From: Ascidiella aspersa
Taxonomy: Eukaryota
Direction: 5' to 3'
Assembly: GCA_963924565.1 (NCBI GenBank)
Contig: OZ004608.1
Span: 14,694,001 to 14,758,000 of the forward strand
Length of the DNA stretch: 64,000 bases
Made by a program: the position numbers and the translations under genes. How positions within the stretch are numbered: position 1 is the stretch's first letter; each line of letters opens with the position of its first letter. Below are positions 8,253 to 20,200 of the stretch, piece by piece. The notes below the pieces were generated by a model that saw only the letters and a program-made list of their open reading frames with translations, made no database searches and was not told the origin of the DNA.

Positions 8253-11200
8253 GTGAGTTTAACTGATAAAAAACTGCTTTAGGTTTAAGAATATAAATTG
8301 AAGCACAACTTGACTTTTATCATGCTTAGGTATGAATTTAATTTTATCTAAATGTGGGGCCGATGTCAGCGGTTCTGGTGGTCAATTATCGTCACCGAAT
8401 TATCCACTGGACGGTCCAACCAATTTTGAATGTCGCTGGTCAATCACGGGTCCAGAAGATACGGTTAGAATCAACTATTATGATATGTTGAAAAAGTGTG
8501 GTGATTTATCATTTAAAAGGACAACCTTTAACTTACACGTACCTGCATTTACTTTAACTTGCACGTACCCGCATTTACTAATTTAAATTGTAGATTAGAG
8601 GTTGAAACGAATTGTGCCTTCTACGCAATCAACTCATACATATATATTTTTATAAATATTTTGAGCATGAATTCCACACTTTCAACCCAAACAATTTTTT
8701 TAGTTGCTGGTCCTACGAATCACGGACTTCGAGTTGCCCTACTCACAACTTTGTGATCCGTCGTACCTCGCCATACACGATGGAAATTCGACCGCTGCGA
8801 AACTGGTTTGTATTTTATCACTGTAGCACGGTAGTCAGCAGCGTCTACTTGATCCGCTCCCTAGGTCGCAGACGCCCAATCATGTACTTCAGGTTTAACT
8901 ATTTAAAAACGCGATCTCCTACGTGGTTCTCTTCCCCAAACCCTTACAAAGGTATTCAACCAAAGTTTATTATTGGTGACACGCTTTAATGCTTCAATTG
9001 GCAGGACGAGCAGGGCCGGATTAAGGTCTTAATGGACCTGGGGCTGTATGTGATTCAGAGACCTATTGTTCTGTTTATTGTTCCAACCACTTTACCATAC
9101 AATAACATTGATTTATTCACTTAAAAAAATATTTAATTGACATGTTTTCTAGCTTCAGATAAAGCAAAGCTGTTGATAACTTTATCGCATTTTTACCCAA
9201 AATCTAGTTTTCAATACAGAGTAGAGCTAAGGAATGCAATTTTGGTCCATAAATGAACGCATTTGATTCTTTACACTTTTAAGAACTGAAAATGAGCGTT
9301 CGACTAAACAATTTGTAATCATCAGACAATAAAGATACTTTCTTACTGTAACAGATACTTTAGGAAACGCATACATGAACTCATTTTCCTAAATAAATCT
9401 AAACATTTAAGCTTATTTGCTACTTTCGACGTTGAAAGTGTGTTCTTGTAGCAGTTCAGAAAAAATAATTAATGTTTTATAGATCATCTGGGTAGCCTGA
9501 AGCAAGGTGTCAGCACTTATTTTAGTATTACGGTTATACTTGGTATCTAGTTTCGCCAGAAACGAAAAAAGCAAATACGAATCTTCTTTAAATCTTCTCA
9601 GTTAGTCAGATGATAGGTTTTCAGATTTCTCCTCGCTCACCAATCGCACTTTTATTTTTTCTTTCTTAAAATATCTTTAATATAATGATATCAGCCATTC
9701 AATATTCTACCTCTTGCCTCGAATTCTTGATATCGGACCTTATTTGAACAAAATCATTAGACCTCAAGCAAATCTGTTGGCTTATTTAAAGTAATTTTGC
9801 TGTCCTACAGTGCCGGACTAGTTTTATCCGTTCCATTACGAATTTTTGATGAAGGTAAATAGCACAACCAATCGAGTTTTATTTTTACCATTCTGTTGTT
9901 AACACAAAAATTAGAACTTAGTACAATGCCGTTTGAATTTATAGTCGGTAATACATACCTTCGAAGTAACAAAAATCGATATCAAGATGTTTTCCACTTG
10001 GCAGTATTAAAGTGAAAAACGACTCAAATCAGTACATCATTATTGGATCAGTACATCATTAAGTTCTTCGATTCTGCAAAAACTTTTTTTATTTTTTCTG
10101 CTGCCTCTTTTCTTGATTTTTGTTTTTCCCACCACTTTTGTAATTATTCATCTCTTGGTCTTATATCTAATTTTGCATGAAATCTGAATATCAGTCCAAC
10201 TTTACTACTTAGATCGCATTCTAACATGTTTTTGTAACATTCCTCTGCAGTATAAAATTTTCTGAACAGTATGCAGGGGAGTGAGCGTTTTTTCAAAATT
10301 AACGAATGGGCAAATTATATATACATTTTACAACAGCAAACAGCAAAATAGCACAAATATCACCGAAACGTTTGTGACTGGATCTTCAATTAAAATTTGT
10401 GTAGGTACGAAGTCACACTGTAATTATAACATTATTTTCAGGCTAGCTATTGTTGACAGAAAGAAAACAATCGCCGTGACAATGATCAATAATGACGATT
10501 CATAAAATTACTACATACTGAGTTAATGTTTATATGTACATTGTACATCTACAACAGTCAACACAGCATTTGTCAAATATTAGCTTGGGTTTAAATAAAT
10601 TTAAAAAAAATATTAGCTTGAATTTAAATATTTTTCCCCCCAAACCTCACACATCTGGTTTAAATTAGGCTTTAAATTACTTCTGTAAAGCCATCTACAT
10701 AACAAAAGAGAAAGTTTGTGAGATGTAAGTAAGATGTTCGCACAGTCGGTGATGATTATAATATAAATTTCAAGCAGTTTAACGTTGCGCCGCTTAACCT
10801 CAGTGGTAGAGAACAGGTTTCGTGAGTTCCAACCTCACTGTTGAAATGTTCAGTTTCTGTTTACAATGGTTTGCATCATAGTGTTACGTCACACTCGATG
10901 CGATTCACAAAATATTACAATGCAAATTTCAACATGGTACAACAGTAAGTAAAAGACCGAGTTTAATTTACCTGCCGGAAAATAAAAAAATAAATTGAGT
11001 ACATTTGCTTCATAAAGTAAAATTTTAAGGTTTCCAACTAAGACTATTCGCTTGGCTAGACCATACGTCATACCGTTGGAAAATATTACTTCCGGATCCT
11101 TTTGAAAAAGTCATTGTCATTTTTATCAGTTAAATAATATGCTATACTATAGTAATTTTTACACGCAATTTGAGTTTTAAGAGAGTTCTTCTAACGTTCT

Positions 11201-17200: not shown

Positions 17201-20200
17201 AGCACAAGGGCAACTACACAATTCTAAATTCAGGCAAAAAGCCGAAGTATTGTGGTAGGATTCTAGACTTGCGTACTACAAAACATTGTTTAACGGAAAA
17301 TAACGTAACTACCTTAACTTCATAAAATTCCGTTTTAAAGTTTAGTTCTCTATGATTGACACCGTGTCAAACTTTGGTATTGTCGCCTTGTTTGGTTACA
17401 AAATCTGAGCGTAACTTGACTGACGACAAACCAAAAGGATCCGGAAGTAGTTGTTCCCACGATATGACGTCACACTAACCAAGTTATGTTTAGGAACTTA
17501 TTGATGCCTGTTTACGCGTAAAATTTAGGTAGAGTTCGCAAATTTACGAAGAATTCAATTTTTATTTTTAAGCCGTTTGTTAGCGAAAGTGATTGAGGCC
17601 AAATCCTAATGACTTCTCAGCAGAGTTCGCGAGATATTGCGTTTATTGCAGTAATTTACAGTAAGCATTTGTTTTTTCAATGAGGATTTTTCTCACGTTT
17701 GACGCAGTTTAGCACCGGGATTACGTATTTGCTTAAACATGACGCTATCAAGTAAGTCTAAGCAATTGCTGCTGCAACCTAAAGTTTTACGTTGGGGAGT
17801 TATTCTCAAGTGACAAATGTCACGGGTTTTCGTTACTTAAAAGATGTATTGCATGCTTAGCCAAGTGTTGTGCGCTATAGTTAACCGACTTCACATCACA
17901 TGATTTGAAATTTCTATTTAGTGACACTCAGTTCAAACGTTTAGGCATAAGCAAAAATTTCTTTTTAACCTGGGCAACGCCAGGTATTTCGTCTAGTTAA
18001 CAATAAAGCATTAGTAGCTGAAAATTACCACAGGTGATTTTGACGTGACAATGCCACAATTGTTTTAAATTTGTGGACACTGGGCGTACAAATCAAATAG
18101 CATAACGTCGAATGAAATCTTTGCGTTTTTCACAACATGCTGAATTGAAGAGCCACTTGGCGAATGGCATGAGAAAAAGGCCAGTGACTTGGCAACATGG
18201 GGAATAGCGTAGCATCTTTAGGGTTTTATGATGTCAAATGAAAAGTTGCTGTCTTAATAGTTGCCGTTTCGAAAGCTGTTTTGCTATTATATGTCTAAAA
18301 GTTGTAAATAAAATTTGTTTAGGTAGTCAAAAATAGGATATGTGAATTGCAAAGTGGACCAATGGATTGCAAAATAGTCATTACAATCACAAAGTAGCTG
18401 TGTAAAATAGAAAGTTCAGTAAATCGTGAATTATTTCAAATCATAAGTTGCTAAATAAAAAGCAATGTTTTTATTTCATTTGAAAAGTTGATGTGAATCA
18501 ACGTCATACCGTTAGAATGGGCCTTTGTCTAATACATACTTCTCATTAAAATCCATAAGGTGTTAGTTTTTCGGCTTTGGCTTTCCATAACTAAGAATAA
18601 TAATTTATTTTTAAATGCGTCAATTGTCTTTATAGTTCTCAGATAGAAAGTATTGTGGCACCGAAACTGTGCGCCCGTTTGAAGCTTCTTCAAACGCGAT
18701 TGTCATCATTTATCACAACGAAGCAAACACGCCAACAAGGGGATTCAGTTTAACGTGGACAACCGAACGTTAGTATACCATGTTTACATTTATACATATA
18801 AGAAAAAAGTTATCAATTTATCAAAAAAAAAAAACGCAACATTTTGTACAGTTCAGATAAATGTATACATTTTTGTCATTTAAATCCAGCAAAATGTAGC
18901 TCTGGTCAGTTTCGGTGCTGGAATGGGAGTTGTATCGCTGGCAGCAAGCATTGTGATAAAAGCCGAGACTGTGCAGATGACAGTGACGAAGTGGAGTGCG
19001 GTAAGAGATTTCGGGCGCAGTTTGAAGTTTCTTTCAGCAAACTCAAATGTTTGACTTTATTTTGTGTTTTCAATTAAAGCACTGTCAACCACATCGTCTA
19101 GCGAGTGCGGAAAGCAAAATGTGGCCCCAACTTTTGAATGGGTTAGTAATAAATATCTGGTTAATACGTTAATACTTAAATGTTTGACTGAATAAACAAA
19201 ACAAGAATCGCCCAGGTGTTGCAGTACAAGTTTTACATACATGTAGCGACGTCGTGTATTTAATAACCTTACTCTATGAAGAGTTAATTAGGCGTGAAAG
19301 CCTAAATTTGGAATTAATAAATTGTGACTGATGGTTCTGTTTGACTAATTATCTTACACGTGTACCAGTAAAGTTTTAACATTATTACTGAAGTGGTGTT
19401 TTTCAGATATGTTTACCGTCAGCCAACATAAGTTTACGAACAGAAATCAGTCGAAAAATAATTACTATGTTTTGTTCTTATTTAATAAATTAACTTGGTA
19501 TAGCGATGATGCTTTAGTATGGTTGTATAATTTTTTTTTAATATTGTATTTTTTGTAATGATGTGTTTTTCTTGTATGCAGGCCTCTCGTATTATTGGTG
19601 GTAGCCAGGCGGTGCCTCATTCATACCCATGGCAGGTCATGCTTGCCAGAACGTACAGCCCCTACAATGTGTTGTGTTCTGCGAGTATAATCTCACCCAA
19701 GTGGGTTTTGTCGGCGGCACACTGTGTTGTCAATTTTTTGCGTAGGTAGGTGGTCACCTATTACCTTTTTGTAAATAAGTAAATATCCTGCAAGGCGTAA
19801 ACAACTTGCTCATTACAAAATTACCCGTTCACGAATTTCGGTGCAACATTTTACGGAGAATTATTTATTGAATTTCGTTTAAAAAGTGAAATCAAAGAGA
19901 ATAATTCTGTTTAAAGTACCATATTGTTTGCTAAACTACCTAATAAATTTTTGATTTATAGCCCAACTTCTTTACTGTTATACGCCGGAAAGGATAACAG
20001 CACACATTCCGAATCAACAGAACAGAAGTTGTACGCATGCGAAATCTACATCCACGAAAGCTGGAAGTAAGGTTTCCGCCTACAAAACGATTGAAGTCCT
20101 ACAAACTTGTATAAGGGGGTATCCAGGGGGTTATAGAGGTTTGGGAGGCTGCACAAGGGCATGATCCCTATACTATATATTTACTAACTTTAACTCCTTC

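Follow-up and report, generated by a model that had tools for sequence, protein, structure and literature searches.

A 64,000-nt stretch of the Ascidiella aspersa genome (assembly GCA_963924565.1, contig OZ004608.1, positions 14,694,001 to 14,758,000) was analysed around a 7.3-kb Helitron-type unit containing the remnants of two Gypsy retrotransposons. The whole stretch is referred to as the window, and positions follow its numbering. The unit begins A|TCTACATAAC at 10694 and finishes at 17996, where a hairpin (17968-17985, folding at -5.2 kcal/mol) is followed by CTAG|T; these are the A|TC and hairpin-CTAG|T ends recognised in an initial annotation of this DNA. The joined flanks of the unit match 6911-6945 at 32 of 36 positions (E 6e-7), in agreement with the empty site that had been placed near 6911, and since a second match (43/50) adjoins at 6854-6898, the region 6854-6945 (plus strand) was taken to be a paralogous empty Helitron site, part of a short local duplication. 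The unit is flanked by a CUB exon near 8350 and, on the other side, by exons for CUB and LDLa at about 18640-19000, which makes it likely that it lies within an intron of a gene belonging to a tandem cluster of likely protease genes, recognised from their repeated motifs. Judged from its sequence, the locus is a nest of transposons, with a Helitron outermost, an ISL2EU element within it, and a Merlin element with the Gypsy cargo innermost. The initial annotation had overlooked the 382-bp repeat arrays, the ISL2EU ends at 11048 and 17483, the Merlin element and a 184-bp poly(A)-tailed insert. It had correctly noted the absence of a Rep/helicase gene, as there is no frame of that size in 12640-16900 and the remainder could be assigned to other elements. 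An Rfam scan of 10600-18100 returned only one sub-threshold match, to a histone stem-loop (21.8 bits against a cut-off of 34), which was judged to be due to chance.

The two Gypsy remnants lack long terminal repeats (LTRs) and lie in the same orientation, as originally described. Gypsy A (12648..14981, plus strand) retains pieces of the gag N-terminus, protease, reverse transcriptase (RT), RNase H and integrase, and Gypsy B (14982..16886, plus strand) retains pieces of gag, protease, RT and RNase H; both were delimited using Pfam and free copies from the genome, and the pair is referred to as A+B. Pfam matches in Gypsy A were to the DUF7041 gag N-terminus (E 1e-8), RVT_1 (E 2.5e-13) and an integrase zinc finger (E 7e-4), and those in Gypsy B were to RNase H (E 1e-17) and, weakly, to protease and RVT_1. 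Gypsy A can be aligned with a free copy over approximately 2.3 kb, and Gypsy B with a 5.0-kb free copy over approximately 1.8 kb. Both remnants are broken by stop codons, the longest stop-free frame being 168 amino acids, and they are unrelated in that they show no blastn match to each other, the RT of their free relatives being 38% identical. Free elements with terminal direct repeats are present in the genome for Gypsy A (L081; L-numbers denote retrieved genome loci) and Gypsy B (L084 and others), and the LTR-like repeats of L081 and L084, used as queries, had no match in the window or in the A+B copies tested. A cluster of LTR-bearing Gypsy B copies, at least five in number and closely related to one another, lies on contig C7 at 3.09-3.46 Mb (L084, L085, L148, L149), with two of them in tandem.

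Gypsy B is itself interrupted by the 184-bp poly(A)-tailed repeat (15337..15520, plus strand), which was delimited by its 27 genome matches, of which 10 lie in young A+B copies; it is absent from the older copy L061. The possibility that this repeat is the tail of a long interspersed element was rejected, and it was called SINE-like (resembling a short interspersed element), because five relatives (L150-L154) share a common 5' start and no RT frame is found upstream. Members of this family have a poly(A) tail, and approximately 18x coverage by RNA reads was attributed to other copies.

On either side of the Gypsy pair are the arms of the Merlin element. Its left terminus (11253..11491, plus strand), which was identified from the family motif and from duplications in relatives, begins 5'-GGCGCT with one mismatch to that motif and is followed by 3.0 copies of a 382-bp tandem repeat (11492..12647, plus strand), each unit of which contains a copy of the terminal motif. 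The right arm (16887..17275, minus strand), identified from the repeats and from relatives, has been truncated to one inverted 382-bp unit, the inverted match to the repeat covering 16887-17281, and the right terminus and target duplication have been lost. Arms in this family are generally built of a terminus of approximately 240 bp beginning with GG and then one to eight 382-bp units, and as a result of these arrays they reach 0.6-3.3 kb. The 23-bp terminal motif occurs exactly 2503 times genome-wide, compared to 0 for the control. An exact 8-bp duplication was found in 12 of 13 short Merlin copies examined, which have terminal inverted repeats (TIRs) of approximately 24 bp. Among the 13 Gypsy-carrying copies with both ends, the 8-bp duplication was exact in seven, near in two and unmatched in four; five more such copies had no usable end. 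The TIRs beginning 5'-GG, the target duplication of 8-9 bp and, in relatives, a DDE_Tnp_IS1595 domain between the same TIRs all assign the inner element to Merlin. The arms do exceed the 24-462 bp TIR range given in the accessible part of PMC8101967, a range that is descriptive; arm length apart, all the diagnostic features tested identify the element, on sequence evidence, as Merlin.

The window copy contains no transposase and is thus non-autonomous. In long Merlin copies, DDE_Tnp_IS1595 matches are found directly inside the right arm (L069, L071). One copy of 12,979 bp on contig C4 (L068:1148 to L069:6626; G000:C4:2195647-2208625) is bounded by an exact 8-bp duplication and holds a Gypsy B remnant together with a transposase gene, in which five predicted exons and four GT-AG introns give one open 302-amino-acid frame with the DDE residues. 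This copy is a likely candidate helper for the Merlin family. The five transposase stretches with at least 96% identity to it all occur in copies that also bear a Gypsy B remnant; the other four close copies are broken or incomplete.

The break of the right Merlin arm in the window falls at an internal copy of the terminal motif, which may be due to chance or to use of a cryptic end. Deletion or boundary points in or beside the terminal motif of the 382-bp unit were seen at window positions 16887 and 17275, in L065 and at L069:5639, and hint at possible cutting at cryptic ends. Many terminal motifs (e.g. L112-L124) are paired as miniature inverted-repeat transposable elements of approximately 203 bp with exact 8-bp duplications.

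The middle layer is an ISL2EU (PHIS) element, of which a left end of 205 bp (11048..11252, plus strand) was identified by comparison with longer copies, and a right end of 208 bp (17276..17483, plus strand) by comparison with relatives; approximately 3 kb of interior and approximately 4 terminal bases have been deleted. Longer relatives (L109-L111) have inverted ends bordered by AT, and L111 encodes THAP, HTH_Tnp_4 and DDE_Tnp_4 domains, with YqaJ on the opposite strand. Thus the features of ISL2EU elements outlined in the accessible part of PMC4482050, namely THAP-HTH-DDE and YqaJ genes and an AT duplication, are all found in L109-L111; the ends of this ISL2EU element begin with TC, as opposed to the usual GG. 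The relatives run uninterrupted across the point at which Merlin starts in the window, and so represent the empty Merlin site. L111 (G000:C5:8403500-8413400) also appears to have a second, Harbinger-like transposase frame of 333 amino acids inside it.

The junction between Gypsy A and Gypsy B was found as an exact match at 15 loci on eight contigs (control, 0), and three further variant A+B copies were present among the retrieved loci. Nine other young copies differ from that of the window by 1.4-2.8% substitutions, and the SINE-like insert is a shared marker of all ten. In the remaining A+B copies, the boundaries are Merlin termini flanked by 8-bp duplications. The suggestion that this DNA is a mobile package of condensed retrotransposon sequence is thus borne out, with Merlin, rather than the Helitron, as its carrier.

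Three groups of Merlin elements carry Gypsy B. In an old pair (L139 and L140), all or part of the Gypsy B 5' LTR is retained beside the left arm, beginning TGT directly after the Merlin sequence, and in L139 the Gypsy element has the same orientation as the transposase. In the transposase-bearing group, Gypsy B is LTR-less, faces the other way and sits elsewhere in the element; the A+B group lacks a transposase. The RT tree proposed with the initial annotation was built for Gypsy B from a 640-bp segment; all 32 rows were kept, of which 24 are Merlin-borne, this being a chosen set and not a census. The A+B copies made up one side of a branch with 100/100 support, and the ten young ones formed a single clade (99/96) nested among older ones; the old pair grouped with the free copy L145 (99/93), and the transposase-bearing group with young free copies (97/95). 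A single origin of all Merlin-borne Gypsy B was rejected by an approximately unbiased (AU) test (p 0.009), as was a grouping of A+B with the old LTR-bearing group (p 0.02); a grouping of A+B with the transposase-bearing group was not rejected (p 0.066). The groups had been named from structure before the tree was made, and the last two tests were run after it had been seen. The tree might be blurred by gene conversion, which would nevertheless leave position and orientation unaffected. Together with the differences in position and orientation within Merlin, the tree indicates that Gypsy B entered the Merlin family at least twice, and probably three times.

In older A+B copies as much as 3.1 kb of Gypsy A and as much as 2.9 kb of Gypsy B survive, compared to approximately 2.2 and 1.8 kb in young ones, and there are short microhomologies at the A/B and B/arm junctions. 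Because older copies hold more Gypsy sequence and the old subgroup holds an LTR, it is likely that the cargo arrived through ordinary insertion and was later reduced by deletion.

We consider it very probable that the A+B pair travels as a passenger in a non-autonomous Merlin element, which likely inserted into an ISL2EU element already within the intronic Helitron. The Gypsy elements would first have inserted into Merlin via their own integrase, and deletions, some at microhomologies, would then have stripped away the LTRs together with the transposase gene and some of gag-pol. The transposase of intact relatives could have moved the package in trans; under this proposal the cargo, which is itself most likely inert, would spread because only the arms are needed. 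At the window locus, Merlin would have jumped by cut-and-paste into an ISL2EU element already resident in a short Helitron, giving the order Helitron, ISL2EU, Merlin, and a final deletion would have removed the interior of ISL2EU along with the right end of Merlin.

Several observations weigh against this reading. Four of the 13 two-ended Gypsy-carrying copies lack an 8-bp duplication, and the right terminus of the window copy is deleted, so its own target duplication is not visible. None of the A+B copies retrieved contained an LTR or internal Merlin sequence, and for this reason the entry route of Gypsy A is one that we infer and do not see. The divergences of the layers overlap (Helitron 1.9-7.2%, ISL2EU 1.5-9.1%, cargo 1.4-2.8%), making dating by divergence uninformative, and the order of insertion therefore rests on nesting. 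Finally, chance insertion by itself does not account for the same Gypsy family having repeatedly entered the same Merlin family. It is conceivable, though improbable, that the Merlin lineage repeatedly traps this Gypsy family, removes its LTRs and disperses what is left between a pair of repeat arms that face inward, acting as a self-copying silencing module against retrotransposons through PIWI-interacting RNAs (piRNAs) or small interfering RNAs, or that the Gypsy family targets the DNA transposon.

It is unlikely that the Merlin-Gypsy package is kept or spread because it yields small RNAs, with inward transcription from the arms, or fold-back of the arms, giving RNA, double-stranded or antisense, directed against the two Gypsy elements. 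This would suit a non-coding Gypsy cargo lying between long inverted arms, the repeated entry of Gypsy B, and the share of Merlin-borne segments in the set chosen for the RT tree. A deletion series of the kind seen here is, however, expected of any non-autonomous DNA transposon. In addition, RNA depth over the cargo was mostly 1-5x in one mRNA-type run, of which approximately 6% was read and 775 reads mapped. Peaks of 15-27x carry fixed differences and extend into sequence deleted at the window copy, and so derive from other copies. The strand they fall on is the sense one in most stranded libraries and is uncalibrated here, host exons having 0 reads. This mRNA-type run neither supports nor excludes piRNA production, and the inverted arms and repeated Gypsy B entry keep the idea alive at low odds.

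Another reading, which follows the initial annotation, is that the Gypsy pieces were captured by the Helitron, which would move the whole 7.3-kb unit by rolling-circle transposition; this now appears very unlikely. In its favour, true Helitron ends surround everything and a paralogous empty site exists. The Helitron 5' part (10694..11047, plus strand), which ends in the AT target of ISL2EU, and the 3' part with the hairpin and CTAG end (17484..17996, plus strand) belong, by comparison with relatives, to a common non-autonomous family of approximately 0.9-1.3 kb. All 15 copies listed begin A|TC or T|TC (14 with A), and the ten read at both ends are 856-1909 bp long and end CTAG|T; 5'-TC, a 3' hairpin with CTAG and insertion at A/T without duplication are thus all present. 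Searches with the two ends gave at least 69 and at least 72 matches, from 40 scored candidates per end. In the retrieved copies, however, the part corresponding to 10694-11048 is joined straight to the part matching 17484 onward, with no cargo, and the ISL2EU site is empty in all 11 copies listed. A query spanning the Helitron/ISL2EU junction matched at full length only at the window locus, among 40 of 327 candidates scored. The annotation had looked to a recurrence of the same ends with the same A/B junction elsewhere. The junction did recur, bounded in the other copies by Merlin termini and 8-bp duplications, but the end, junction and A/B-junction searches of the genome found no cargo moving with Helitron ends to other loci. 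One older A+B copy (L064), the sole other A+B copy found in this Helitron family, is inserted at a different position in another family member with its own 8-bp duplication, so the Helitron is itself a target. It was therefore likely the landing site, not the vehicle, for the Gypsy cargo, and both the Helitron and ISL2EU layers are passive hosts here. That the A+B copies arose by segmental duplication or ectopic recombination rather than transposition is scarcely credible, since only L058 and L059, which have a common left flank, resemble one duplicated region, and the remaining copies have unrelated flanks, exact stops at the termini and distinct 8-bp duplications. L058 and L059 (contig C3, 14.34 and 14.57 Mb) are deleted A+B copies whose common flank is in opposite orientations, which points to a possible inverted segmental duplication.

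Foldback elements, such as Drosophila FB and sea-urchin TU, have long inverted arms of variable-number tandem repeats around a variable middle. The Merlin family described here resembles them in arm architecture, but differs in that its transposase has been identified and is of the Merlin type. In the accessible part of PMC8101967, Merlin (IS1016/IS1595) is defined by GG ends, an 8-bp duplication and DDE_Tnp_IS1595, and internal tandem repeats are described. All of these are shared by the family in the window, which differs in arm length, in reaching 13-15 kb and in having a multi-kb Gypsy cargo; retrotransposon cargo in Merlin is not mentioned in that part of the paper. As with the multicopy Pack-TIR/Pack-MULE Ssk-FB4 described in the main text of PMC8277862, foreign sequence is carried to several loci by a long-armed, non-autonomous TIR element that transposes repeatedly. 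Unlike Pack-TIRs as presented there, the cargo is a retrotransposon rather than a host gene, and likely entered by Gypsy integration rather than gap filling. Identity with Pack-TIRs was rejected, since this would call for capture of a host gene with a unique parental copy and the cargo here is Gypsy sequence with several free relatives at 82-95%. That main text places FB4 with Mutator-like elements and does not contain the word Merlin, and Merlin is likewise not mentioned in the accessible part of a review of giant transposons (PMC6431247). No title in the literature searched, which took in few subscription papers or Repbase entries, dealt with Merlin and retrotransposon cargo; the S1 Table of PMC8101967 may hold Merlin families with long repeat arms.

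Nested transposons are ordinary, and what is new is a foldback-type Merlin lineage, 6-15 kb in size, in which Gypsy remnants have been repeatedly acquired and dispersed. It is a clear example of dead retrotransposon sequence being amplified by a cut-and-paste transposon, with stages kept in one genome: an LTR-bearing Gypsy element in Merlin, an LTR-less one beside an open transposase, and a condensed two-Gypsy package. The range of Merlin is widened to foldback-like arms and to elements of 13-15 kb. Nested loci of this kind can mislead both Gypsy copy counts and calls of Helitron capture. If small RNAs do arise from A+B copies, transposition would give silencing loci a way to spread; such an origin is directly testable through the copy-specific junctions.

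The surrounding window contains a tandem cluster of plus-strand genes at 3240-49534 with CUB, LDLa and trypsin-like motifs (repeat families D7, D9, D11 and D14). Two local tandem duplications were also seen, at 50248-54365 and 58906-61909, involving a 2143-bp unit that is 99-100% identical and a unit of approximately 1.9-2.1 kb that is approximately 94% identical.

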